From UHGV virus genome UHGV-0261881: DNA of 12,078 nt, one strand, 5' to 3'. This document shows, piece by piece, positions 1 to 12,078 of the stretch. Origin of the DNA: a virus. The notes beneath the pieces are model-generated. The model made no database searches. It saw only the letters and a program-made list of their open reading frames with translations, and had not been told where the DNA came from. Both the position numbers and the translations under genes were made by a program. Numbering within the stretch: the stretch's first letter is position 1; each line of letters opens with the position of its first letter.

Positions 1-246
1 GCGGGTAGGTGTACCAAAAATAATGGCGTCGTAATCGGCCAGTTCTTGCGGGGTTGCAACCGGTGCAGTTTGCGTTTTACCGCCTGCTTTTTCAAATAAT
101 TGCGGCGGCATGGTTTCCGGTACACGCTTAACGACAACTTCTGCGCCATCCACTTTGCTTGCACCCTCAGCGACTGCGCGTGCCATCGTTTCAATATGTC
201 CGTACATGGAATAATAAAGCACTAGTATTCTTGCCTTAACACTCAT
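1..246 (-). CDS. wrbA: NAD(P)H:quinone oxidoreductase WrbA, N-terminal 82 codons (3' end runs off the window); first 8 codons supplied by the inserted element
   Basis: Minus-strand translation from ATG at 246-244 gives [82 protein letters not shown]. From VLYYSMYGH onward this matches the WrbA N-terminus as I recall it ([31 protein letters not shown]...). SD aggaga sits 8 nt upstream on the minus strand (plus 254-259). Confidence 0.92.
216..225. other. attL junction (host wrbA side | element side), crossover within or next to AAAGCAC
   Basis: Sequence ggaataatAAAGCAC|tagtattc: left part matches wrbA, right part does not. The same AAAGCAC is found at the right junction. Confidence 0.7.
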
Positions 247-297
247 ATCATTGTTCTCCTGTTCAATGAACCACTTAGATAAGCATAGTCCGAAGAT

Positions 298-1941
298 ATG
301 AAGCTGCTAGTGACATACATCAGGTGGAGTACTAAAGAGCAAGACTCAGGAGACTCCTTAAGACGGCAAACAAACCTCATTGATGCTTTCTACTCTAAGC
401 ACAAAAATGATTATTACCTTCTTCCTGCTCACAGATACGTTGATAAGGGTAAATCTGGTTTTCACCAGCAACATAAGAATCAAGGTTCTGACTTCAGACG
501 TATGTTTGAAAATGTTATGTCTGGGGCTATTCCAGAAGGTTCCTTGATTGTTGTAGAGAACTTTGACCGCTTCAGTAGGGCTGATATCGACACAGCTATA
601 GATGATGTCAGGCAGATACTGAGGAAAGGAGTCTCTATACTGACTCTGGGAGATGGTGAACTCTACGACAAATCAGCATTAACAGACCCTGTGAAGTTGA
701 TTAAGCACATCATCATAGCTGAGCGAGCACATCAGGAATCTCTTGTTAAACAAAAGCGTATAGCTCAGGTCTGGAACCATAAAACACAGCTTGCAAGAGA
801 ACTTAAGAAGCCTATGGGTAAGCAAGCCCCCGGATGGTTAGAGCTATCAGATGATGGTTCACACTACATCGTTGATGAAGATAAAGCGTCACTGGTGAAT
901 ATCATCTATGACAAGCGTCTTTCTGGTATGTCGATGTTTGCTATCTGCAAATGGCTAAACGAACAAGGTTACCCGACCATTAATCAGCGTAAGGTCAGAA
1001 TATCCAAGACTAAGAAACCTGATGGTAACTGGTCAGCATTAAGCGTTAAACACATCCTGACTTCACGAAGTGTATTAGGTTACCTTCCCGCTAAGATTTC
1101 TACAGAAGACCGTAAAACAGTGTTACGTGAAGAAATTGAAGGGTTCTATCCTCAGATTGTCACAGACTCTAAGTTTTACGCTGTACAGCAACTGTTAGAG
1201 GAAACAGGGAAGGGGAAAACATCCAGCGGTGAACACTGGCTATATGTGAACATACTGAAGGGGCTTATCCGTTGTAAGTGTGGGCTTGTAATGACTCCTA
1301 CAGGGATACGTAAACCCGTTTATCAAGGTACTTACCGTTGCAATGGTAATAAGGAGTCCCGTTGTAGCTACGGTACAGTGTCCAGAAAGTTACTTGATAC
1401 ACAGCTTTGTAGTCGTCTGTTTAGCAAACTGTCACAGCTACACGATGAAGCTACCGATACAGCTAAATTAGATGAACTGCAACGCAGACTAAACACCGTT
1501 GATAGTGAACTGGAAAAACTCACTGAGACGCTGATACAGCTTCCTAACATCACTCAGATTCAAGAAGCACTACGGGTTAAACAGGAAGAAAAAGATGAAC
1601 TGATAGTTCAGTTATCACGAGAAAAGGCGAGGGTAAAATCTGTATCAAGCTTGGATTTAAGCGGTCTTGATATGGAGTCTGTAGAGGGGAGAACTGAAGC
1701 CCAGATTATTATTAAGCGTTTGGTGAAAGAGATTGTTGTTTCTGGTAATGAAAAGCTGGTGGATATATATCTTCACAATGGAAATATGATTCGTGGTTTT
1801 CCTCTTGATGGTAAAGATGACCACACCTTAACGCTTGAAGAAGCAACCGATGAGATGCAGTCATTAGATGATATGCTTATTTTTGGTGAACCAGTAACAA
1901 GGATTTATCCTGCTGGTGATATGGAAGAGGTGGACGCTTAG
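298..1941 (+). CDS. Large serine recombinase (integrase), 547 aa
   Basis: N-terminal catalytic motifs YIRWSTKEQ (catalytic Ser), [15 protein letters not shown] and ERAHQESL. Cys-rich stretch IRCKCG...[14 protein letters not shown] consistent with a recombinase zinc ribbon. Coiled-coil-like C-terminal region ([21 protein letters not shown]). ATG start at 298. Position next to the att junction. Confidence 0.88.
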
Positions 1942-1944
1942 GAA

Positions 1945-1960
1945 TTGGTATTGTTACCAA
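1945..1960. terminator. Hairpin between convergent genes (TTGGTA-ttgt-TACCAA), possible bidirectional terminator without a clear U-tract
   Basis: Perfect 6-bp inverted repeat with a 4-nt loop, exactly filling the gap between the integrase stop (1939-1941) and the minus-strand gene stop (1961-1963). Confidence 0.3.
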
Positions 1961-2734
1961 TCAATAAGTGCCCTTCTTATTCGGATTCACACTAAATTTC
2001 CGTAAAGCATTACCCGACTTAAGCACTTTTGAAGCCTGCTCATTAGCTGAGGCTGTGAAGGTGCTTACACCATCTTTCACCGTGACATTTTTAGAGCAAT
2101 TGCTACGGACCCTTAGCGCTTCATCAGATAGCTCAGATGCTGAGTAGCTATACAGTTCCTGACACATCAACATAGGTGCGTTATTGCGTTCAGTAGTCAC
2201 GTTACCCGCATTCTTCTTAGAAGTTGCGCCACCATCATTTGTGGTAGCGGCCTTTCCAGTTGCAGCAGAGATATCAGTCTGACCAACAACAGCTTTAAAG
2301 TTAATTTCCTGAAAAGTTAGCTGGATTCTTAGACCATTTGAAATACCAACATCTTTAGATGCTTTAAAGCTTGTAATAATGGAATCATCAATTTTAATTC
2401 CGTCCTTACAGATAACAGAAATAATTTGCTTCTGGTCACGCCAGCTTTCAAGAGTGTCAATGAAGTTTTCTACTAATTGACCCTGACGAGTTAATAATAA
2501 GCTTCCTTCATAGCCAACTACAACGACACCACTAATAGTGATTGTTCTGGGTGCTCTTTGCACATTATCTGTGACGGTTTGCCCTGATTGCATGTTCTGT
2601 GTAGTCACCTGCATAGGGCTATCAAATTCCATGTTTTCAGTTGCTGATAAGGTTAAGAAGGCATCTACATTGTCTCTTAAGTGGAAATAGATGCCATCTT
2701 TGCCACTGTAACGAATCTGATTAGAGTAAATCAT
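1961..2734 (-). CDS. Hypothetical protein, 257 aa; weak resemblance to a phage distal-tail/structural protein given its position after the tape-measure-like gene
   Basis: Long ORF. The track's TTG start at 2755 is replaced here by the ATG at 2734-2732, which has a strong SD (aaggag, 7 nt upstream on the minus strand). Beta-rich-looking sequence ([15 protein letters not shown]). No catalytic motif recognised. Confidence 0.6.
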
Positions 2735-2813
2735 TAAATTCTCCTTTGATTTCAAAGGCTTAGTGTATTTTAATCATTTTTAACCAAGCCTTTGATATAT
2801 AAGTATTTTCTCT

Positions 2814-2895
2814 GTTAAGCGTGAGCTACGTAAATTCTATTTTTCAGTGCAGGTATTAACTTTGCTTTATTCACGTAGCATTCGACTATTCATAG
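2814..2895 (-). promoter_or_regulatory. Promoter-like cassette, copy A, upstream of the 257-aa gene
   Basis: About 37 bp nearly identical to copy B (taagcgtgagctacgtaaattctatttttcagtg). On the minus strand it reads ...ctgaaaaaTAGAATttacgtagc..., a -10-like TAGAAT with no good -35. Dyad arms GCTACGTAAAT (2825-2835) and ATTCACGTAGC (2869-2879) flank and overlap the -10. Confidence 0.45.
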
Positions 2896-2968
2896 TTGAA
2901 TCGTCATACTAGATAAAGATTAATAGATTGCCATGTGTGGCAATAAATATTAGTAGTTCTAACATTGT

Positions 2969-5044
2969 TTATTCCTCTGGGTAAGCTGAGCTAATCAAGG
3001 TATCTTCCTGCATACGATTAATATGCGATGTGGTTCTTTCATCAATAACCTTTCCATCAAGTACCGTCTGAGTTGTGATATTGATTGTCTGAGGCTGAAT
3101 GTTTACTGACGGCTTGATAACCTTTAAATCTTGTGTGAATGTTTCCACTCGACCTTTCAGATTATTTAATGCTTCAGGTGAAAACTGTGGAACATCTTTT
3201 GATTTGCCCTGAACCATAGCCCATAAAACAGCGGCTAAAGAGTTCATGTCACCAGACAATGCTTGGTCTGTAGGTTCCACCTTTGACCTTACAACTTTGT
3301 CAATTGGATTATCTGACTTACTCATCTGACGTTCATAGAACGGTTTAACAATGGAGTTAATCACATCAGTTGCCATACCGACAATCATTACTTTGGTAAT
3401 TGCATCAGCTACAGATAATTTTCCTTTACCACCTTCAACACTACCGGAACGTGAATTAATTCTTCCTGCTGCTGTATTTGCTACATTTCCAAGCGTGGAA
3501 ATAGCCCTAATTAAGCTCCAGATGCCACCTACAGCACCAATACCAGACCTTACAGCAACAATACCAGCAAGTCCCTTTAATGCACTTAACAGGCCATTTG
3601 CGATACCATCAGCTACAGCTTTTTGAGTGTCATTTAATTCTCTGTAAGCAAGGGTCACTCTGTCAAAGAATCCCTGCACTCGGTAGCTAATCGTGGTTAA
3701 ATCATCAATACCGTTTGACATACTTTTCATCAAGTCGCCAAAATGTTCACCAAGATTTTTAGATTGCCCACCTAGCGAATTAAGTAAATTAGTCAGTGAC
3801 CTTGTAAAGTCTGTTAAACCTTCCTGTGAACCGTCGAACATTAAGGCCAGATTATTATTCCATGAATTAGAAAGGCGGCCTAACTGCGTCTGAGTAGAGT
3901 TAATAATCTTTTCCCATCCACCAGCTTTATCAATCATCCTTCCCATTTCAGCGGATACTTTAGGAAGAACATCTTTAGAAAGAACTTTACCGTCTTTCAT
4001 AGCCTTGTCTAATTCTTCTGTAGTCATCCCAAGGCTTCTGGCAAATAACTGGAAAGCACCTGCCATTCTGTCACCTAATTGACCACGTAGCTCTTCAGCC
4101 TGAATCTTCCCTTTAGAAGCCATCTGCTCGAAAGCTTTCAGAATCCCGTTAATTTCATCAGTACTTAAACCCATTAATCTGGATGTGCCAATCACATTAC
4201 TAAATAAGGATTCTTTCTGGCCTGCATCCATATCACCAGCACCAGCGGAAAACTTAGCAAAACTGCTTAATGTTTCAATCTGGTCAACACCAGTATTATT
4301 AGCAAGATTCTTAACAAATTCTGTAGCTCGTTTAGCACCTTCATCACCTAAAACGAATTGTGCCGCTCGTTGTGATGCTTCTTTTTTCAGACCAACCTCC
4401 ATAATCTTCCTGTAAGCTTCTAAGGCTGTCTGAAAACTATAAATGGCTGTACCTGCTTTGATTGCACTTGTAGCTAATACATCCAGACCATTCGAAGCAT
4501 TTTCACTGTGATTATTTTTGCTGGTGGTCTTGTTAAACTTAGAAAGTGTTTCACGAAGAGACTGATTTAATTTTGCTAACTCACGATTAAAAGCTTCGTT
4601 TCCAAGTGTCTTGGATTTACTACTTAATGCGTAAAACTGACTCTTAATGTATTTCTCGACAATTGGGTTAAGACCTTTCAGCTTGCTCATATTCGCTGAA
4701 TAAGCTGCTGTGATTGCTCTGTTTCCGCTAATTCGTGGTTGCCTTGATTGTTTTGGAGGATTAACAGTGTCATTAAATCTGGTGGCAAACTGAAATGCTT
4801 TTGTGCTTCTTGCTCTCTGTTCAATCTTGTCAAAGGTCTTATTAAACTTCCTTTCAAGCTGCCCTAAAGAACTTGTCAGATTGCTGTCAAGTTGCTTGGT
4901 ATCGACCTTAAACGCTCTATTCAAATTGCGTTCAATTCTTTGTGCTGACTGCAAAGCTGCCTTTTCAACTCTTTGCAAGCCCTTAATAACGTTTTCACTG
5001 AAACTAAGTTCAACGATAAAACTATCAACTGTGAATTTGCTCAT
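2969..5044 (-). CDS. Tape-measure-like protein (phage tail length tape measure domain), 691 aa
   Basis: Central block GLSTDEINGILKAFEQMASKGKIQAEELRGQLGDRMAGAFQLFARSLGMTTEELDKAMKDGKV resembles the tape-measure core domain. Gly/Ala-rich hydrophobic segment (GLLSALKGLAGIVAVRSGIGAVGGIWSLIRAISTLG) and coiled-coil-like N-terminus are typical of tape measure proteins. ATG start with SD agaggtg. Confidence 0.65.
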   Translation of the reverse strand: MSKFTVDSFIVELSFSENVIKGLQRVEKAALQSAQRIERNLNRAFKVDTKQLDSNLTSSLGQLERKFNKTFDKIEQRARSTKAFQFATRFNDTVNPPKQSRQPRISGNRAITAAYSANMSKLKGLNPIVEKYIKSQFYALSSKSKTLGNEAFNRELAKLNQSLRETLSKFNKTTSKNNHSENASNGLDVLATSAIKAGTAIYSFQTALEAYRKIMEVGLKKEASQRAAQFVLGDEGAKRATEFVKNLANNTGVDQIETLSSFAKFSAGAGDMDAGQKESLFSNVIGTSRLMGLSTDEINGILKAFEQMASKGKIQAEELRGQLGDRMAGAFQLFARSLGMTTEELDKAMKDGKVLSKDVLPKVSAEMGRMIDKAGGWEKIINSTQTQLGRLSNSWNNNLALMFDGSQEGLTDFTRSLTNLLNSLGGQSKNLGEHFGDLMKSMSNGIDDLTTISYRVQGFFDRVTLAYRELNDTQKAVADGIANGLLSALKGLAGIVAVRSGIGAVGGIWSLIRAISTLGNVANTAAGRINSRSGSVEGGKGKLSVADAITKVMIVGMATDVINSIVKPFYERQMSKSDNPIDKVVRSKVEPTDQALSGDMNSLAAVLWAMVQGKSKDVPQFSPEALNNLKGRVETFTQDLKVIKPSVNIQPQTINITTQTVLDGKVIDERTTSHINRMQEDTLISSAYPEE

Positions 5045-5057
5045 TCATGTTTCACCT

Positions 5058-5140
5058 CTTTAAGCGTGAGCTACGTAAATTCTATTTTTCAGTGTGGATA
5101 TTAGCTTTACAGATTTCATGTAGCACACATAGGATTCGAT
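5058..5140 (-). promoter_or_regulatory. Promoter-like cassette, copy B, immediately upstream of the tape-measure-like gene
   Basis: Same core as copy A. -10-like TAGAAT on the minus strand (plus 5079-5084) sits about 35 nt upstream of the ATG at 5044. Lies between an intrinsic terminator (5160-5201) and the gene start. Confidence 0.5.
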
Positions 5141-5159
5141 AGAAGACTATCTCATATAC

Positions 5160-5201
5160 AAAAAAGGGAGAAACTACCGATATCACTCGATAATCTCTCC
5201 C
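5160..5201 (-). terminator. Rho-independent terminator after the 67-aa gene
   Basis: Minus strand reads GGGAGAgattatcgagtgatatcggtagttTCTCCC followed by TTTTTT: 6-bp GC-rich stem plus U-tract, about 25 nt downstream of the stop at 5227. Confidence 0.6.
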
Positions 5202-5226
5202 GTTGATTTTCACCCAACCAATCTTT

Positions 5227-5430
5227 TTACCTAACCAGATAATAATTACCATCTTCACCGACAATCTGACAATCACTTGGTAATTTATCAAGACACCATT
5301 TAGCGATTCTTCTGATTCTGTTATTTTGCTTAGAGGTGGATGATTTGATTCGTTTTGGTTTGTTGGGTTGTTCTTTCAGTCGTTCACTAATTGCCTTGAT
5401 GAGTTCATAGCGTTCTGTTAAATCAATCAT
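5227..5430 (-). CDS. Hypothetical small basic protein, 67 aa
   Basis: ATG start with a strong SD (aaggaggtg). N-terminus MIDLTERYEL is paralogous to the upstream 102-aa protein (MSDLTERDKR). Confidence 0.55.
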   Translation of the reverse strand: MIDLTERYELIKAISERLKEQPNKPKRIKSSTSKQNNRIRRIAKWCLDKLPSDCQIVGEDGNYYLVR

Positions 5431-5455
5431 TCACCACCTCCTTTTTAATTCGATT

Positions 5456-5764
5456 TTAATCTAAGTAGTGTATACACTCGACACCGCGTTCATTCTTTTG
5501 AATTTCATAACGTAGTGAAAGACCAGTTTGATAATACACAGTATCAAGCTTATTTATCTTATCCTTGAGTTCGATAAGAAGTCGCGTTAAATCATCCCGA
5601 CCATCACACTTTAGTTCGGCAAGAGGCTTTTCTTCCATACGACCAATAAGATATTCAGTGACCTCCTGAATATCACCAAGAGTCATTTTAATTTCATTGA
5701 ACCTATCTTCAAAAGGCTCCATCACCCATTTCATTCTTTTATCGCGTTCTGTTAAATCACTCAT
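5456..5764 (-). CDS. Hypothetical small acidic protein, 102 aa
   Basis: ATG start. Its start overlaps the stop region of the upstream 234-aa gene (5764 versus 5773), suggesting translational coupling. Shares the M-x-DLTER N-terminus with the 67-aa protein. Confidence 0.6.
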   Translation of the reverse strand: MSDLTERDKRMKWVMEPFEDRFNEIKMTLGDIQEVTEYLIGRMEEKPLAELKCDGRDDLTRLLIELKDKINKLDTVYYQTGLSLRYEIQKNERGVECIHYLD

Positions 5765-5772
5765 TATTCACC

Positions 5773-6477
5773 TCAAACAGCCTTGCTAAATTCTCGTGGA
5801 ACACTCAGAAAATCATTGAAGCTGATAATCTGTGCCAACTCTTGACGGTACTCCTTAGCCAGCGCTTGATGGTCACTAATCAGCTTAGCCAGTCTTGATT
5901 TCAGCAATTTAATCTCATTTTCTCTTGCTTTCATCAGTTTCTCTTTGGCAATTTCTTCAAGCTCAGCTTGTGATTTATCAGCAACAATTAGAGACAGTTG
6001 ATGTGGCGCTCTGATGGCCCTTTCCGTACGAATAACCCTTTGACCTTCTGGTAAATCTGCAATCACTTTACCAATCTCTACAGGGTCATACCCCCAACCG
6101 TCACGGTCTAGTCGAGAGAAATAAGCATAAGGATTGGTTTGAAGCTCCATCAAAATAGCCATTTCGTCGATTTCGTCTTCAAGCTTGGACTGAATTTTCT
6201 CGTAAACACTTCTCATTGCTTCTTGAGAGTCTTTAATAGCTTGGAAATATCGGCGTTGCAGCTTCAGTTTCAAATCAAGCTCACATTTCTCATTCATCGA
6301 AAAATCAATTTCAACTCTTGGAATCTCGAGTGGTTCTGGTGGAATATATGGACCTTTATTTACTTCGTGTGATTCCCGCCAAGCTCTATCAAAAGATTCA
6401 CGCAAAGTTAATTCGTGAATATCAAGTGCACTTGGTCTGTTCTCAACAATCATTTCATTTTCATCACGGATAGCCAT
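5773..6477 (-). CDS. Hypothetical protein, 234 aa, charged and coiled-coil-rich
   Basis: Long ORF with ATG start. Its SD (agaagagga) lies inside the 3' arm of an 11-bp hairpin. No motif recognised. Confidence 0.6.
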   Translation of the reverse strand: MAIRDENEMIVENRPSALDIHELTLRESFDRAWRESHEVNKGPYIPPEPLEIPRVEIDFSMNEKCELDLKLKLQRRYFQAIKDSQEAMRSVYEKIQSKLEDEIDEMAILMELQTNPYAYFSRLDRDGWGYDPVEIGKVIADLPEGQRVIRTERAIRAPHQLSLIVADKSQAELEEIAKEKLMKARENEIKLLKSRLAKLISDHQALAKEYRQELAQIISFNDFLSVPREFSKAV

Positions 6478-6487
6478 TAATATTTTT

Positions 6488-6556
6488 CCTCTTCTAAGAT
6501 AATTTACGTTTCAGTTTTTAAAAAGCACACCTGACAACCTACGAACTTAGAAGAGG
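6488..6556 (-). promoter_or_regulatory. 5'-UTR hairpin sequestering the SD of the 234-aa gene
   Basis: Perfect 11-bp inverted repeat CCTCTTCTAAG (6488-6498) / CTTAGAAGAGG (6546-6556) with a 47-nt loop. On the minus-strand mRNA the 3' arm contains the SD, 10 nt before the ATG. Confidence 0.5.
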
Positions 6557-6594
6557 CTTAAAAGGCGTTTGCCAAGTATGCTTTTTAAAAGCTG

Positions 6595-6631
6595 AAAAAA
6601 GCCCTAGATAACTAAAACGCTATAAAGGGCT
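6595..6631 (-). terminator. Rho-independent terminator ending the upstream minus-strand operon
   Basis: Minus strand reads AGCCCTttatagcgttttagttatctAGGGCT followed by TTTTT(T). Confidence 0.5.
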
Positions 6632-6949
6632 AAGGTGAAGAAATTAAAACATCTAAAGGATTCAATAACGAATGAACAAGAGTACTTTTCGAGATGACCT
6701 CTCAGGTTATATAAGAGGTCATGTAGCGAAAAGCATTGCACCTTTCCAAATCAGAATATCCATCCATCGGATTATTGAAAATATGATTTTAGGAAGAGTT
6801 GCTCTTCCCTATAATTAAAATTATGTCATACTTAAGGTTATTTGTCAACAGCCTTTTAACAGATTGGTAACATCAATTTCTATTTACTGTGTTGCCTACC
6901 CAGCAACCAACAAATAAGCCAAGCAACGTCCAAGCAATTATTAAGCCCA

Positions 6950-7279
6950 TTAGTGAACCCTCACAGAATCCGTAACCAAAATATTGTCGCTGTACAGGAT
7001 TGTCACAGCACCTTTCAAAAATTGCTCTGGGGAAATACTGTATTTGTTCGTTTGCTCGATAACCAATCTTTTCATGTTGCTGTCTTTAATTGGTAGCATC
7101 ATTCGAGGCTCGTTAAACTCCACCGACTGAATAAAGTCAGAGATGCTTTCCGCATTATCAGTCATTAACTCTAACAACTTATCAAAGTCAACGCTAACAC
7201 CTACATCAGCGAAAGCCTGAATCATCATGGCGGTGTCGGTATCAATAAAAATCTGTAGTGGGAAGTTTAATTCTCTCAT
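6950..7279 (-). CDS. Hypothetical protein, 109 aa
   Basis: ATG start with SD aaggag. Lies immediately downstream (minus strand) of structured repeat copy 1. Confidence 0.55.
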   Translation of the reverse strand: MRELNFPLQIFIDTDTAMMIQAFADVGVSVDFDKLLELMTDNAESISDFIQSVEFNEPRMMLPIKDSNMKRLVIEQTNKYSISPEQFLKGAVTILYSDNILVTDSVRVH

Positions 7280-7304
7280 TTCTTAAAATCTCCTTTTTAC
7301 CAGA

Positions 7305-7430
7305 CCTCCTCAATCGCTCTGTAACGAGCTAAACAGTCTTTTTCAGGGGTAGCCTGTACAGTGGTATTACCCACCCTAAAATAAGGTAGTTTTTTGCGTT
7401 AGAATGCGATTGAGAGCGTCTGAGAAGCTG
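7305..7430 (+). repeat. Structured inverted-terminus repeat (SIR), copy 1, between the HNH-like gene and the 109-aa gene
   Basis: Aligns base-for-base in the same order with copy 2 (same orientation) and with the reverse complement of copy 3. Shared blocks GCTCTGTAACGAG, CAGGGGTAG, TACCCACCCTAAAATAA, GTTAGAATGCG and AGAGCGTCTGAGAAGCT. Termini are mutually complementary (CTCAATCGC / GCGATTGAG). Confidence 0.75.
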
Positions 7431-7435
7431 TTTTT

Positions 7436-7723
7436 CTAATTTCTCTTAAAGTCTCGGACTTGCATAAGATTTTTTGGTCTGGTATCGGCTCTGTTACCAT
7501 TTCGATGGATAATTTGCTTGTTGGATTGATAGCCATGATAAAGGAACCAGACAACATATTTCACGTAGAAAGTATATCGGCCTATATTAAATGTTTTGTT
7601 GCCGTAGTCGTCGGTATTTATCGTGACTGACTCTCCATCAGACCAGCACAGGGAATCACTGGATTCATCATAGATAAGGTGTTCTGTAAAATATCGTCTA
7701 ACATCTTCATGCCAAGGTTTCAT
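7436..7723 (-). CDS. Small HNH-family endonuclease-like protein, 95 aa
   Basis: C-terminal YVKYVVWFLYHGYQSNKQIIHRNGNRADTRPKNLMQV resembles the HNH motif of phage-type HNH nucleases (consensus-like ...W..hnG...IDHINGN..DNR..NLR). ATG start overlaps the upstream gene by 4 nt. Confidence 0.55.
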   Translation of the reverse strand: MKPWHEDVRRYFTEHLIYDESSDSLCWSDGESVTINTDDYGNKTFNIGRYTFYVKYVVWFLYHGYQSNKQIIHRNGNRADTRPKNLMQVRDFKRN

Positions 7724-7935
7724 AAAACCTCCTCACCCCAATAACCTAATTCAATCTTGTGACGCTCAAACCATTCCGGTTTAACTGCTGTTTTCAGTAC
7801 TTCATTTGGGTCAATGGCTTTAATGAAAATATCTTTTGAGTTATGGATGTCACCGAATCCGTTTCCTTTAATCAGGAGGTCGGAGATGTAGCGAATCATT
7901 TTATCTGTGTGGTATTCAAAGGTAACGCATAGCAT
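7720..7935 (-). CDS. Hypothetical protein, 71 aa
   Basis: ATG start overlapping the upstream stop (TAATG). Part of a tightly coupled operon. Confidence 0.5.
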   Translation of the reverse strand: MLCVTFEYHTDKMIRYISDLLIKGNGFGDIHNSKDIFIKAIDPNEVLKTAVKPEWFERHKIELGYWGEEVL

Positions 7936-8213
7936 TAAACCTCCATCGCTAACTTGTGAATCTTAAGACTCAATAGACGGGCAATATCAATTTTAAAGCC
8001 GTTAAGTGCCTTCAAAGTATCTAAAGCGTCCTGACTAATTCGGATGTGCTTACGACCTTTAGAGACTGGATATTTAAGTAAATCCGACTCAGTGACCTCT
8101 TTAGCAATTGCAAGTTGCATAATAGTTTGATGAGGTAAGTTAGTTGCTTGTTTAATTCTGGTAAGCTCGTTAAAAGCTTCCTCTGAAATACGGGTTAATG
8201 TGTGTTTATTCAT
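7935..8213 (-). CDS. Putative ribbon-helix-helix (RHH)-like DNA-binding protein, 92 aa
   Basis: N-terminus KHTLTRISEEAFNELTRIKQATNLPHQTIMQLAIAKE fits a strand-helix-helix pattern like CopG/Arc-type RHH. A second similar pattern (HIRISQDALDTLKALNGFKIDIARLL) follows. Stop of the upstream gene directly abuts its ATG. Confidence 0.4.
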   Translation of the reverse strand: MNKHTLTRISEEAFNELTRIKQATNLPHQTIMQLAIAKEVTESDLLKYPVSKGRKHIRISQDALDTLKALNGFKIDIARLLSLKIHKLAMEV

Positions 8214-8768
8214 TTAAAATTCCTCTGTAACTAAATACGGGTCAAACTCGAAATCTGGTTCACTAATCGTAAGGCTGATATTGCCCACTTCCGCATGATG
8301 ATTAATTGTCTCAATAACTTTCATGCAAATAGTGGCTAAGTTAGCGCAATATTTATCGCTTGGTAATTCATAGCTAAGTCTGGTTGCTTGTCTTTGAAGA
8401 TGGCTCGTCACTGTGCTTGAGCTAATCTTATCAAGGCTTCGAAGCAAATAGAAAATCTTCCGGTGATAGTTATCCCTTCCAAAGCTGCGACAAGTGCCGA
8501 TAATTACATCTTCAATTCGTGATGGTAGTTGCTCGTAAGAATCAAAGCCCATCAAGAAAGTTTTTAAAGTATTTTCTTTTTCTTTGCGTGTTGGCATATA
8601 TCTGTCTCGTGGCGTAATGCTACGAATGACCGCTTCAATGTTCTTACGTTCGGATTTGCTAAAGGTTGGGACTTCGTAGCTGGTGGGGGTGTCTGTGTAG
8701 CTGTAACCGTTGCTTCTGTTTCTTGCTTTGCTCTCTTCAAGAAACTTTTGAAAATCTTTGTCGTTCAT
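8214..8768 (-). CDS. Hypothetical protein, 184 aa, first gene of the operon
   Basis: ATG start 43 nt downstream of a consensus-like promoter. No motif recognised. Confidence 0.6.
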   Translation of the reverse strand: MNDKDFQKFLEESKARNRSNGYSYTDTPTSYEVPTFSKSERKNIEAVIRSITPRDRYMPTRKEKENTLKTFLMGFDSYEQLPSRIEDVIIGTCRSFGRDNYHRKIFYLLRSLDKISSSTVTSHLQRQATRLSYELPSDKYCANLATICMKVIETINHHAEVGNISLTISEPDFEFDPYLVTEEF

Positions 8769-8817
8769 TCATAAGCTGGCCCTTATAATTGTTAATTTCC
8801 TGTTAACTATATATACA

Positions 8818-8846
8818 ATCTTAGCAGTTTCAAAGGCTAATGTCAA
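8818..8846 (-). promoter_or_regulatory. Sigma70-type promoter of the minus-strand four-gene operon
   Basis: Minus strand reads TTGACA (plus 8846-8841), a 17-nt spacer, then TAAGAT (plus 8823-8818). Confidence 0.6.
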
Positions 8847-8854
8847 GCATTTTT

Positions 8855-8884
8855 TTAACATTTGATTAACATTTATGGTATAAT
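8855..8884 (+). promoter_or_regulatory. Extended -10 promoter firing rightward into the ORF-poor region
   Basis: TTAACA (8855-8860), 18-nt spacer, TGgTATAAT (8876-8884). Divergent from the operon promoter. Confidence 0.55.
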
Positions 8885-8917
8885 GGTTTTATGAGAGAGG
8901 GAAAATATAAAGGCGTG

Positions 8918-8975
8918 GCTATGAGGTTTATTCGATAAACCGAATCAACTATGAGAATGGTCACATGGTTATTGC
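8918..8975 (+). repeat. Direct repeat Rep2, copy A (contains cgaatcaactatgag)
   Basis: Homologous to 10493-10592 in the same orientation (ctatgagRtt ... cgaatcaactatgag ... aatggttatt). Confidence 0.6.
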
Positions 8976-8986
8976 ATTGCACACAG

Positions 8987-9082
8987 GCCTCTTCAATCGC
9001 TCTGTAACGAGTTAAATGGCCTCTTCAGGTCAACTCATAAGGTCAGGTACTTTTTGTATCAGAATGCGATTGAGAGCGTCTT
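8987..9082 (+). repeat. Structured repeat (SIR), copy 2 (shorter), forming the leader of a small ORF
   Basis: Shares the 5' block cttcaatcGCTCTGTAACGAG and 3' block AGAATGCGATTGAGAGCGTCT with copy 1. The central part differs. Terminal 8-bp complementarity TCAATCGC / GCGATTGA. Confidence 0.7.
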
Positions 9083-9095
9083 ACAAGGAAAACTA

Positions 9096-9272
9096 ATGGT
9101 AAACCTCCCTCCTGAGCTGGGGTCACCTGATGTTTGGGCTGGTGGAGGTGTGGGTCTGATTGCAGGCCTGCTACTTCGCTACGTCCTCGTCAGAGTGCTT
9201 GTTGTCTTTAAACTGTTCGGTCGTACATGGACGCTTGACCTTAAGGATAATGACCACACAGACCCCCGTTAA
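9096..9272 (+). CDS. Putative small membrane protein, 58 aa
   Basis: ATG at 9096 with SD aagga 7 nt upstream. Translation MVNLPPELGSPDVWAGGGVGLIAGLLLRYVLVRVLVVFKLFGRTWTLDLKDNDHTDPR has one hydrophobic helix and a charged tail. Weak hairpin (CCCCT/AGGGG, 9286-9309) downstream. Confidence 0.35.
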   Translation: MVNLPPELGSPDVWAGGGVGLIAGLLLRYVLVRVLVVFKLFGRTWTLDLKDNDHTDPR

Positions 9273-9391
9273 ACCCCCTTCAAAACCCCTATACCATCTC
9301 GTACAGGGGTATCTTTAGCATTTTGTGCTATCTATTAAAAAATAGCTTGACAGAACCGGAAAGCTGTATTTATCAAGTATTCACCTCTCTG

Positions 9392-9564
9392 ACAGTGATT
9401 TCTAAAAATACTTATTTTTCAATGAGTTGTAATCACCCATATATAGAGAACTGACAAGTCTCTTCACAGAGAACTCTGTAACCTTAACAGTAATTTCTAA
9501 AAATACTTATTTTTCAATGAGTTGTAATCACCCAATATATAAGGCTGTCCAGTACCTTCACAGA
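9392..9564 (+). repeat. Tandem direct repeat, two units of ~80 bp with a 95-bp period
   Basis: Units 9392-9470 and 9487-9564 share a ~55-bp near-identical core (acagtRatttctaaaaatacttatttttcaatgagttgtaatcacccatatata) and a downstream cttcacaga. A GCTCTGTAAC-like motif lies between the units (9474-9482). Confidence 0.7.
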
Positions 9565-10375
9565 TGACTTCAAGCCTTCTTAGCTATCCACTAAGCGGGA
9601 GAAGAGCGATAACCCCAGAGAGGGAAGCTCCCTTCTAATTGGTATTGTTATGAGGATGCTTCATCCGAATCATCTACCAATCCCTAAACCGACTCTCTTA
9701 ACCAGCCCTTTACGTTATTCGTTCACAGTGTTGATAAGTGGTTTTGCCCTCTGTTTCTGTTATCATCGGGCTTACCTTATCAGGGCTTTGAAATGCCCTG
9801 TAACTCCCCTCTTAACGGGAGAGAAAGAACATAGTGACCCCAAGCGAAGCGCCCCTCTAAAAAGATTTTTTAGCTACTTTGTTTAAAAGCACATCAAACG
9901 ATACATTTTATTGATTTAGGTCAAAGACAAAAGCATTGACAAAATGGTAAGATTGTTCACATGACCTTACTTAACAGATTCTTAAGAGCTTTGAAACGGC
10001 CTATTTAACAAGGTCACTACCTACGGTTCTTCGTTTTCCTTCTTTCTAGGTAGTCATCTGTTAAGAGTTTTTCAGTCTTACTCTTAAGAATCACTGTTAA
10101 GATGATACTCTCCCCTTCGGGTTATATCGTATCTCTTCTCCCGTTAAACACCCCTTCCTAACTATCTACATAATCACTTCTAAGAATCTTACAAGGTAAT
10201 ATCCAGACCTCTTATAGTTGACCTGATACAGAAGTTTTACAGGCATACTCTCTAGGTTACTAATCGGGTGCTATCAAGGGCCACTAAACGAGAGAGGGGA
10301 TATGTGACCATAGGGGAACCCCTCCTGTTAAAAAGGCCACTTAGAAGTCTGAGACTTTAGTAAAATCTGTGAATA

Positions 10376-10492
10376 TAGCTTCTCAGGCGCTCTGTAACGC
10401 ATTCTAAGCGATTTTACCCCTTTATTTTAAGGTGGGTGGTACATCCCTATAGACTACCCCTAAAAATGGGGTTAAAACTCGCTACAGAGCTT
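10376..10492 (-). repeat. Structured repeat (SIR), copy 3, inverted relative to copies 1 and 2
   Basis: The reverse complement of 10371-10500 aligns along its length with copy 1 (blocks GCTCTGTAGCGAG, AGGGGTAG, TACCACCCACCTTAAAATAA, GCTTAGAATGCG, AGAGCGCCTGAGAAGCT). Termini are complementary (GCTCTGTAGCG / CGTTACAGAGC). Confidence 0.7.
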
Positions 10493-10592
10493 TCTATGAG
10501 ATTAGCTTCATGAAGTAATTCATTACTGAATCACCTAATCGAATCAACTATGAGGCTTGGTAAGATTGTGCAAAATCTGTACAATGGTTATT
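10493..10592 (+). repeat. Direct repeat Rep2, copy B
   Basis: See Rep2 copy A. Here it abuts SIR copy 3. Confidence 0.55.
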
Positions 10593-10850
10593 TGGCTTCT
10601 GAAAATTTTTACAAAAATCATAGTAGCCCTCTTTGAATCTCATCTTCCCCGAATCTTCAAAAATATCTGACAGATGTCTGTAGCTGCTAAGTACCCGTCA
10701 CACCAGCTATGTGACCCCCTTTGCAAAAAAGCCAAATATCTATTGACTTTCTATGTGAATTGCTATAAAGGCATCTATCTAGACCTTTAACTGTATAAAT
10801 ACACATGACAACAAACGCCCGTTAAGTGTCTATATAAAAAGGTAGCTGTA

Positions 10851-10895
10851 GCTATAGACAACAATTGTGATAATTGATTTAATGGCTATAGACAA
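10851..10895 (+). promoter_or_regulatory. Two direct GCTATAGACAA repeats upstream of the small recombinase gene (candidate operator or binding sites)
   Basis: Identical 11-mers at 10851-10861 and 10885-10895 (34-bp spacing). Related TATATAG-like motifs at 10828-10836 and 10914-10922. Confidence 0.4.
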
Positions 10896-10935
10896 GCAAG
10901 ACAGACCTTTGTTGACTATATAGAGAGATAAGAAC

Positions 10936-11505
10936 ATGCGTACATTCCTTTATGCTCGTGTATCAGTTGATGACCTCACCACACAAAACCAAGTAGAAGC
11001 TGTTAAACGTGCTGGTTATGAAGTCAAACCTTCACGAGTGATTGAGGAAGTTATTAGTGGTGCTACACCAGCTATGGACAGACCACAATTTGTAAAGCTG
11101 GTGGATAAGCTGGAAGAAGGTGATTGTCTTGTAGTGACCAAGATTGACCGCTTAGGAAGGGATAACATTGATGTACAGAAGACCGTCACAATGTTACTGG
11201 ATATGGGTGTGAAGCTAATTTGTTTAGACCTGCCTGTAAAAGACCTTTCAAGTGCTGAAGGTAAACTTATCCTTCAACTATTCAGTACCTTTGCAGAGTT
11301 TGAACTTAACCGCATCAGAGAGCGAACCAGAGAGGGCTTAGAACGAGCTAAAGCACAAGGTAAGGTGTTGGGTCGTCCTGTAGCTAAAAACACTACAGAG
11401 GCCGTTTTAGAGCATAAGGCAAAGGGATTGTCACAAAGTCAGGTTGCAAAGCTTCTGAATCTCTCTGTGAGAACGGTTAGCCGTCACTGGACAAAGACAC
11501 TGTAA
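10936..11505 (+). CDS. Small serine recombinase (resolvase/invertase family), 189 aa
   Basis: Motifs YARVS (catalytic Ser), VVTKIDRLGRD and ERTREGLERAKAQGKVLGRP, plus a C-terminal helix-turn-helix (GLSQSQVAKLLNLSVRTVSRH). ATG start. Confidence 0.88.
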   Translation: MRTFLYARVSVDDLTTQNQVEAVKRAGYEVKPSRVIEEVISGATPAMDRPQFVKLVDKLEEGDCLVVTKIDRLGRDNIDVQKTVTMLLDMGVKLICLDLPVKDLSSAEGKLILQLFSTFAEFELNRIRERTREGLERAKAQGKVLGRPVAKNTTEAVLEHKAKGLSQSQVAKLLNLSVRTVSRHWTKTL

Positions 11506-11526
11506 GAAACTTAGTAGCATCTTCAT

Positions 11527-11550
11527 AGCCTCCTTCATGGGGGCTTTTTT
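11527..11550 (+). terminator. Rho-independent terminator after the small recombinase gene
   Basis: AGCCTCC-ttcat-GGGGGCT stem (one G-U pair) followed by TTTTTT, about 22 nt after the stop. Confidence 0.6.
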
Positions 11551-11558
11551 GTATCCAC

Positions 11559-11626
11559 TCTCTAAGCGTGTCCTACGCAAAATCTCCTGAACACTTACCC
11601 ACCCTCAGAAATAACTTTCACGTAAG
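11559..11626. repeat. Diverged third copy of the promoter-like cassette (copy C), containing a TTACCCACCCT block shared with the SIR repeats
   Basis: ctctaagcgtgtcctacgcaaaatctc resembles the cassette A/B core. The loop contains ttacccaccctcagaaataa, similar to TACCCACCCTAAAATAA in SIR copy 1. 3' arm ctttcacgtaag. Confidence 0.45.
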
Positions 11627-11937
11627 AAACTGTTAAGCAGCTTGATAGTTATTCTGTGTGACCAAACATCTATATATCGTTATATAGTCCTGTATATAGC
11701 ACTTTTCTAGGAGTCGAGAGAGGGACGACTAACACGATACAGTTTACCCTGAAAAGAGACTTCACAGATTCTCTATATATTTCAATAAGTTAGGCTAAAA
11801 AGAGACTATACCGATACTGCATAGAATCTGTGTAAAACTGCTTAGATACTTGGGAAAATGCCTTTAAATTGAATAGGGATTCACCTGATATTGTCCTGTT
11901 ATTAACAGGTAGTTGAATGTACGTGTTTAGCTATGTA

Positions 11938-11947
11938 AAAGCACCAG
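11938..11947. other. attR junction (element side | host wrbA side)
   Basis: Sequence ctatgtaaAAAGCAC|cagaactttagccat: the right part is the reverse complement of the native wrbA start ATGGCTAAAGTTCTGGTGC. Confidence 0.7.
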
Positions 11948-12078
11948 AACTTTAGCCATTTCTAACCACTCCTCGTGTTATCTCTATTCCGTAGCGATTC
12001 GCTACCACTTATTTAAAGATAAGACGTCCTTTTCAGAGTGCAAATTTCACAACCACTTATTTGATTTATAACAACTTT
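11945..12078 (-). other. wrbA: Displaced native wrbA start codon (11959-11957), first codons, SD and native upstream region
   Basis: Minus strand reads gaggagtggttagaaATGGCTAAAGTTCTGGTGC..., giving MAKVLV, the native WrbA N-terminus. It is separated from the rest of wrbA (1-222) by the element. Confidence 0.8.

Follow-up and report, generated by a model that had tools for sequence, protein, structure and literature searches.

Elements of the SXT/R391 type, which integrate in the 5' end of prfC (PMC2791158, PMC5812530, PMC3715440), are the closest analogue of the island described here. The e14 element and phage 21, in icd, and the prophages that target tRNA genes restore the displaced 3' end of the gene (PMC3603311, PMC6536676, PMC12671055), and SPbeta (in spsM) and skin (in sigK) are large-serine-recombinase elements that interrupt genes (PMC5499854, PMC5025042). 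Here, we analyzed the viral genome sequence UHGV-0261881, a stretch of 12,078 nucleotides (the window) that contains a complete island inserted near the 5' end of wrbA of Escherichia coli. As judged from its sequence, the island probably rebuilds the 5' end of this gene: the junction, the 201-amino-acid product, a conserved cassette, and a leader that appears to be under selection all point this way, and transcription would come from a promoter in an element-borne spacer. We also consider likely the broader claim that wrbA stays expressed by means of the 5' cassette of the island.

The junction between the island and wrbA

Window positions 1 to 222 were 99 to 100% identical to wrbA in 5,417 of the 5,426 complete E. 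coli genomes surveyed, and alignments of empty-site strains to the window ended at positions 222 to 225. With HB101 as the empty-site reference, the empty site was rebuilt exactly, and a 7-bp core was found to be identical in attB, attP, attL, and attR. The reconstructed attP reads ...AAGGCAAGAATACTA-GTGCTTT-TACATAGCTAA..., and the insertion point of the island is this core, which lies within wrbA codons 6 to 8.

The initial annotation of this DNA had claimed that the element supplies an ATG and seven further codons in frame with host wrbA, that these are preceded by a good Shine-Dalgarno (SD) sequence, and that the integrase gene diverges only 51 bp from the new wrbA start. The reverse-complement translation of positions 1 to 246 agreed with the proposed fusion and contained neither a stop codon nor a frameshift, AGGAGA was present at 260-255, and the spacer coordinates (247-297) placed the integrase ATG at position 298, divergent from the fused wrbA. 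The element thereby gives eight codons (MSVKARIL) where the native gene has five (MAKVL). This leader (223-246) was invariant among the 11 E. coli loci carrying the junction that were inspected closely.

The product of the divergent gene was assigned from its domains. Its catalytic domain scored 43.2 bits with PF00239 (Resolvase; cut-off, 23.3), and it scored 71.9 bits with PF07508 (Recombinase), likewise above the cut-off, and 22.1 bits with the PF13408 zinc ribbon, just short of the cut-off of 25.3. The N-terminal motif YIRWSTKEQ fits Y-x-R-x-S-T-x-x-Q, and residues 6 to 500 matched the PHROG 95 integrase (E value of 2.6e-78). Moreover, attL and attR share just the short 7-bp core with attB, as in large serine recombinase elements. 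The 298-1941 product is a predicted large serine recombinase of a site-specific island, with predicted recombination activity. The initial annotation had not recognized the element as an island of this class. A wrbA Stx2 prophage of the 933W type was considered and excluded by the serine integrase, by the insertion at 222 rather than at approximately 200, and by matches in phage databases that were just short mosaics.

The fused WrbA and its distribution

In the strains carrying the junction, the fused open reading frame (ORF) encodes a WrbA of normal length (201 amino acids), which PGAP annotates as intact wrbA (WP_000111568.1). The junction was present in 74 of the 5,426 genomes, from many lineages, and wrbA was annotated across it every time. 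An intact 201-codon ORF was found in 11 of the 11 inspected loci, most of which encoded WP_000111568.1, and the exact fused protein was found on at least 1,000 contigs. The same protein is the UniProt/Swiss-Prot entry NQOR_SHISS, the WrbA of Shigella sonnei. The NCBI record of the fused WrbA is labeled "MULTISPECIES [Enterobacterales]", and the mobile-element origin of the N terminus is nowhere indicated.

Residues 5 to 82 of the fused protein aligned to residues 2 to 79 of the PDB WrbA structure 2r96 (E value of 2e-46), with K3R and V4I as the only differences. The product thus corresponds to native WrbA with a four-residue N-terminal extension (MSVK), two conservative substitutions, and an unchanged flavin mononucleotide (FMN) loop. 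At WrbA position 4, the Klebsiella, Salmonella, and Erwinia-like proteins natively have isoleucine, and the end of the leader, K-A-R-I-L, mirrors the A-K-V/I-L with which strand beta1 natively begins. Since WrbA chains that are extended much further at the N terminus have been crystallized (in 7q6n, the match starts only at residue 34), the extension is unlikely to block folding. The extended WrbA is predicted to keep every functional residue and to be a working-looking enzyme.

The integrase gene was truncated by an insertion sequence (IS) in 3 of the 11 islands, those of WP7-S17-ESBL-04, O55:H7 DEC5B, and E47 (loci L006, L010, and L024), the elements being IS1203, IS3, or ISEc12. The fused wrbA, leader, and spacer were identical in these three loci, whose islands are probably immobilized.

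Related junctions in other genera

Relatives were reached through a protein search with look-ups of the encoding contigs and through a degenerate junction pattern. A single-integrase query against species-representative genomes returned no related loci, and the degenerate pattern returned one additional species genome and 18 metagenomic contigs. Relatives of the integrase with 61 to 65% identity were found in Klebsiella michiganensis, Enterobacter hormaechei, Erwinia, and several metagenomes. Their integrase genes are likewise divergent and lie 40 to 51 bp from a wrbA of 205 to 206 codons, which is followed by yccJ. Pantoea dispersa had the same leader and spacer, with a shorter integrase ORF (414 amino acids) that is apparently truncated. 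The leaders of the relatives (MSSSELRGKPRIL, MTDEVRGKARIL, MQDEERVKARIL, and MQDEQRAKTRIL) are 11 to 12 codons long and in frame, and the WrbA of Scandinavium starts with MSGKAKIL. In every case, the relatives keep their own purine-rich SD sequence, 4 to 9 nucleotides from the ATG.

In all, 26 junctions were recovered, and all 26 were in frame. For comparison, junctions were made at random in window sequence and scored for an ATG in frame within 20 codons, no stop codon, and an SD sequence of at least 4 nucleotides; about 4% of them had an in-frame ATG and SD. Because of this 4% expectation, a single junction alone is weak evidence. The combination of SD, ATG, and in-frame leader was conserved over six leader types (Scandinavium included) from at least six genera.

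Distant relatives of the integrase (L021/L022 and L023) occupy other 5'-proximal or intragenic sites. One with 35% identity lies 34 bp from a 121-amino-acid 3' fragment of a DUF72 (yecE-like) gene beside yecN, cmoA, and cmoB, where the disruption is apparently real, and one with 53% identity lies just upstream of the intact start of rlmB (MSEMIYGIHA). Because these distant relatives are found near a DUF72 fragment and an intact rlmB, gene restoration looks specific to the wrbA clade.

Variation within the leader

Among the 11 E. coli copies, none of the 75 sites at 223-297 was variable versus 18 of 173 sites in the integrase gene at 298-470 (Fisher P = 0.002). In the three leader clades with several members, 8 of 8 variable sites were synonymous third positions in the wrbA frame, at six distinct positions. 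The probability of this result without coding constraint is approximately 6e-6 to 9e-5. As the within-clade variation is synonymous only, these patterns show a leader that is, to all appearances, translated and selectively maintained, which would imply natural expression of the fused gene.

The E. coli leader type was also compared by eye with the 11-codon types. In E. coli the old frame reads CAA TGA, and an ATG three codons downstream is used with the SD spacing kept, which suggests that a deletion of about 7 nucleotides may have removed the ancestral ATG.

The proposal in the initial annotation that wrbA is not simply knocked out was thus borne out on several counts: the fused ORF is uninterrupted, both strand beta1 and the FMN loop SMYGH are kept, the new SD and ATG are conserved across five genera, and within clades the leader varies only synonymously.

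Transcription of the fused gene

The extended -10 consensus of sigma-S promoters is KCTAYRCTTAA (Weber et al. 2005, in the form quoted in PMC5650638). Within the 51-bp spacer, on the wrbA strand, aCTATGCTTAt fits the consensus as quoted there at 9 of 11 positions, among them the C at -13 and all of the CTAYRCTT core. The sequence CTATGCTTA is the sole CTAYRCTT in the window on both strands (expected, 2.06 per 24 kb), and a match would fall by chance in the spacer, on the correct strand, with a probability of about 0.004. The predicted start is near 275-276, which gives a 5' untranslated region of about 29 nucleotides. The -35 element of this candidate is weak (CTAGCA, 310-305) and overlaps integrase codons 3 to 5.

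Spacers of the Enterobacter, Pantoea, and Erwinia types have CTACGCTT (TG-C-TACGCT-T) at the same distance, 33 nucleotides 5' of the fused ATG, and the spacer sequence around it has diverged, including a 7-nucleotide indel. CTAYGCTT was conserved in four of the five junction types. A plus-strand promoter serving the integrase gene was considered as the meaning of the conserved spacer motifs and fits poorly, since the Enterobacter and Erwinia types have no suitably spaced TAnnnT hexamer. That a sigma-S-like promoter in the spacer specifically drives the fused wrbA is a prediction from sequence that we put forward tentatively, as somewhat less than an even proposition. A wrbA promoter is more likely to lie in the spacer than inside the integrase gene, and if the candidate -10 is real, the sigma-factor class may have been preserved rather than changed.

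Several observations weigh against a rebuilt wrbA that is translated and transcribed as proposed. No sigma-70 consensus promoter was found in positions 1 to 900 on either strand, and the scores of a position-weight-matrix scan of 250-520 on the minus strand were at the background (chance) level. The K. michiganensis-type spacer is without CTAYGCTT, and in the Enterobacter and Erwinia types the motif abuts the integrase start codon and an SD-like sequence, AAGGAAAG, on the opposite strand; part of the conservation of CTAYGCTT could therefore serve translation of the integrase. With regard to the leader, three of the polymorphisms are GAT/GAC changes in D codons that are possibly not independent, although the six distinct sites alone still give P < 1e-3. 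In addition, the part of the leader comprising GTTAAGGCAAGAATACT is the P' arm of attP, and its likeness to the native codons may partly reflect recognition by the recombinase. The negative sigma-70 scan is of little weight, because the native wrbA promoter was missed by the same scan. The initial annotation had placed the wrbA promoter inside the element, probably within the 5' end of the integrase gene. The scans lent no support to such a promoter, and the best candidate is located in the spacer, not in the integrase gene. The initial annotation also suggested that the element could rewire the regulation of this host stress gene; it may do so, or regulation may instead have been conserved.

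We propose the following sequence of events. The large serine recombinase would integrate the island at the 7-bp core in wrbA, and the integrase-proximal end of the island would bring the replacement SD, ATG, and short leader. Transcription would then start from an element promoter in the 51-bp spacer between the two genes, the best candidate being CTATGCTTA at 288-280 with its weak -35 over the first integrase codons. The gene would remain a stationary-phase gene, and the cost of integration to the host would be small.

Alternative explanations

The fused gene might instead be translatable yet essentially silent, having been cut from its sigma-S promoter, in which case carriers would be functional wrbA knock-downs. 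Such silence would agree with the failure to detect a sigma-70 consensus promoter and with earlier comparative work that counts wrbA among prophage-disrupted genes (PMC3603311). As noted above, however, a scan that the native promoter also escapes says little, and a silent gene is hard to reconcile with codon-level purifying selection on the leader, with an intact fusion in every sampled locus, and with an SD and ATG that are kept across lineages whose spacers have otherwise diverged, including the apparent replacement of the start codon in E. coli. We assign this explanation a small but appreciable probability. Read-through from within the island is an improbable source of wrbA transcripts. 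It would have the leftward tape-measure and Dit genes (5044 to 1961) transcribed onward, antisense through the integrase gene and into wrbA, so that WrbA would be made mainly upon activation of the island. The island genes from 8768 to 1961 are all on the wrbA strand, no convincing minus-strand terminator was found between 1961 and 246 (just a weak 6-bp stem at 1239-1223), and no consensus promoter adjoins wrbA, all of which would allow it. The leftward early operon, however, is ended by a strong terminator before the tape-measure gene, and approximately 1.6 kb of untranslated antisense RNA would, on general knowledge, be open to Rho termination. The three IS insertions in the integrase gene would interrupt such transcripts, yet the fusion is still intact there, and leader variation that is synonymous only favors regular expression.

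A different kind of explanation is that attP must resemble attB to be bound by the recombinase and that the in-frame leader is a by-product of this resemblance and of chance. In the P' arm, the inner 12 bp do agree with those of the B' arm at 7 positions (GCAAGAATACTA versus GCTAAAGTTCTG), which alone yields the A-K/R-V/I-L likeness, and about 4% of random junctions, as given above, restore an ORF with an SD. Nevertheless, a typical att arm spans about 25 bp, and the SD and ATG fall at or past its edge; both are present in each of the six leader types, whose lengths and sequences differ, and constraint on DNA recognition would not give leader variation with a period of three that is synonymous. 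We regard this explanation as highly improbable, and we retain the reading that the island rebuilds the 5' end of wrbA.

The attR side

The native wrbA start, AACTTTAGCCAT, was found at 11948-11959, 11.7 kb from the rebuilt gene (Table 1). The native wrbA promoter, with its SD and ATG, faces into the island at attR, antisense to the small serine recombinase gene, and the sole terminator between the native promoter and this gene (11527-11545) has a plus-strand orientation. The stationary-phase wrbA promoter of the host may feed antisense transcription into the element. A reciprocal promoter swap, in which a portable sigma-S-type cassette of promoter, SD, start codon, and leader runs wrbA and the orphaned native sigma-S promoter transcribes into the right end of the island, is improbable. 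If it were true, the behavior of the island would be tied to the stationary-phase or stress state of the host.

Gene content of the island

The features of the window are collected in Table 1. NZ_CP138419 and NZ_CP121151 also have the island flanked by wrbA and ymdF; the cargo varies, and IS insertions are present. NCBIfam gave no specific names for the island genes of unknown function, PADLOC gave no defense-system matches except one sub-significant match for the small recombinase, and no RNA family was found by Rfam anywhere in the window.

Table 1. Coordinates of features in the 12,078-nucleotide window
Feature	Position	Strand	Remark
Host wrbA coding sequence, native codon 6 (Val) onward	1..222	-	3' part beyond window edge
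attL crossover core AAAGCAC (wrbA sense GTGCTTT)	216..222	.	attB/attL/attR comparison and attP reconstruction
Integrated island, ~11.7 kb	223..11937	.	
Element leader ATG AGT GTT AAG GCA AGA ATA CTA (MSVKARIL)	223..246	-	overlaps attP P' arm
New wrbA ATG	246-244	-	
Divergent spacer, fused wrbA to integrase gene, 51 bp	247..297	.	no variable site in 11 E. coli copies
Shine-Dalgarno AGGAGA	255..260	-	8 nt 5' of new ATG
Candidate sigma-S-type extended -10 CTATGCTTA, hexamer TATGCT at 287-282	280..288	-	predicted
Large serine recombinase (integrase), 547 aa	298..1941	+	Pfam and PHROG
Dit-like baseplate gene	1961-2755	-	
Tape-measure gene	2969-5044	-	
Leftward genes of unknown function (ORFans), HNH endonuclease among them	5227-8768	-	
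Stretch without convincing ORF, ~2 kb	8800-10900		
Small serine recombinase	10936-11505	+	
Orphaned native wrbA start, native ATG and 5 codons fused to element, 10-codon stub MAKVLVLLHS-stop	11927..11959	-	
attR core copy, same 7 bp	11938..11944	.	attB/attL/attR comparison
Native wrbA upstream region, SD GGAG at 11972-11969 and promoter region	11960..12078	-	identical to HB101

The tape-measure gene and the next gene (1961-5044, minus strand) are syntenic with the tail module of the strictly virulent FelixO1-like phages (Felixounavirus). Residues 13 to 170 of the Dit-like protein are approximately 98% identical to garuso_119, and many Felixounavirus genomes match nucleotides 2201-2710 with 94 to 95% identity. 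The tape-measure protein has just 28% identity overall and is 44 residues shorter, the parts kept being the N-terminal 45 residues or so, the central domain, and the C-terminal SSAYPEE. Capsid, terminase, and lysis genes are absent from the island. The presence of a FelixO1-like tail module without capsid, terminase, and lysis genes suggests that this may be a satellite or interference island directed at FelixO1-like phages.

A very strong intrinsic terminator (15-bp stem and T run) at 5201-5166 on the minus strand separates the operon running from 8768 to 5227 from the tape-measure/Dit module, for which no promoter of its own is evident; because of this terminator, the tail genes appear to form a separately controlled unit. 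The stretch at 8800-10900 contains a 48-nucleotide direct repeat (9392-9439 and 9487-9534; 98% identical, 95-nucleotide spacing) with a second repeated block next to each copy, and strong divergent promoter-like sites are located at 8806-8885. The stretch could be an iteron replication origin or a source of noncoding RNA.

Comparison with known systems

Literature searches returned no description of the island, of wrbA together with a serine recombinase, of a Felixounavirus satellite, or of a chimeric NQOR_SHISS/S. sonnei WrbA. The findings imply that occupancy of wrbA is not always loss of wrbA. Since the island leaves a working-looking enzyme, scoring of wrbA as "disrupted" by polymerase chain reaction or BLAST would misclassify approximately 1.4% of complete E. 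coli genomes, and Shigella sonnei, whose reference WrbA is a chimera, is presumably misclassified likewise. That the N terminus of NQOR_SHISS is encoded by a mobile element is relevant for annotation and for structure/function work. The island family offers a compact, naturally optimized attB/attP pair for a large serine recombinase, with integration that would be neutral for the target gene by design, and a clean system for studying the replacement of 5' regulatory signals by a mobile element. That the replacement codons are under selection is supported by unusually clear comparative evidence. The conceptual gain is modest unless the promoter swap is true, the general principle being known.

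The Stx2 prophages of the 933W, Sp5, and O104:H4 type share the wrbA target with the island, and there too a PGAP "wrbA" coding sequence spans the junction. They differ in having a tyrosine integrase co-oriented with wrbA and an insertion about 10 codons deeper, the host match ending near position 200. In the O104:H4 lysogen C227-11 (L002, 2141-2719), the "wrbA" ORF of 192 amino acids reads MINHILRH/VETMAR... at its junction and has neither strand beta1 nor the FMN loop YYSMYGH. Its start lies within the phage tyrosine integrase gene, 4 nucleotides from the end of that gene. This 192-amino-acid product is probably a nonfunctional remnant annotated as a normal gene, and the O104:H4 Stx2 insertion is, from its predicted product, a true disruption of wrbA in which the FMN-binding N-terminal region is destroyed. 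An annotation artifact of this kind was excluded for the island fusion, in which the whole fold is retained.

Like the island, e14, phage 21, and the tRNA-targeting prophages carry a surrogate of the displaced gene end and leave ORF length unaffected. They restore the 3' end, however, for which no expression signals are required, whereas an element that replaces a 5' end also has to bring a promoter, an SD, and a start codon. SPbeta and skin share with the island the class of recombinase and an intragenic attB, but they split the gene and restore it by excision alone, whereas the island leaves the gene whole while integrated.

The likeness to SXT/R391 is that a conserved housekeeping or stress gene is entered at a specific site, a few codons from its 5' end. 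Hochhut and Waldor reportedly found in 1999 that SXT supplies a new promoter and 5' codons to give a functional hybrid prfC. SXT, a conjugative element of about 100 kb, has a tyrosine recombinase, Xis, and an att core of 17 bp that is near-identical; the island, in contrast, is 11.7 kb long and has a large serine recombinase, a 7-bp core, phage tail genes, wrbA as its target, and a predicted promoter. The strategy of repairing the interrupted target is already known, and it is the recombinase class and the target that differ here.

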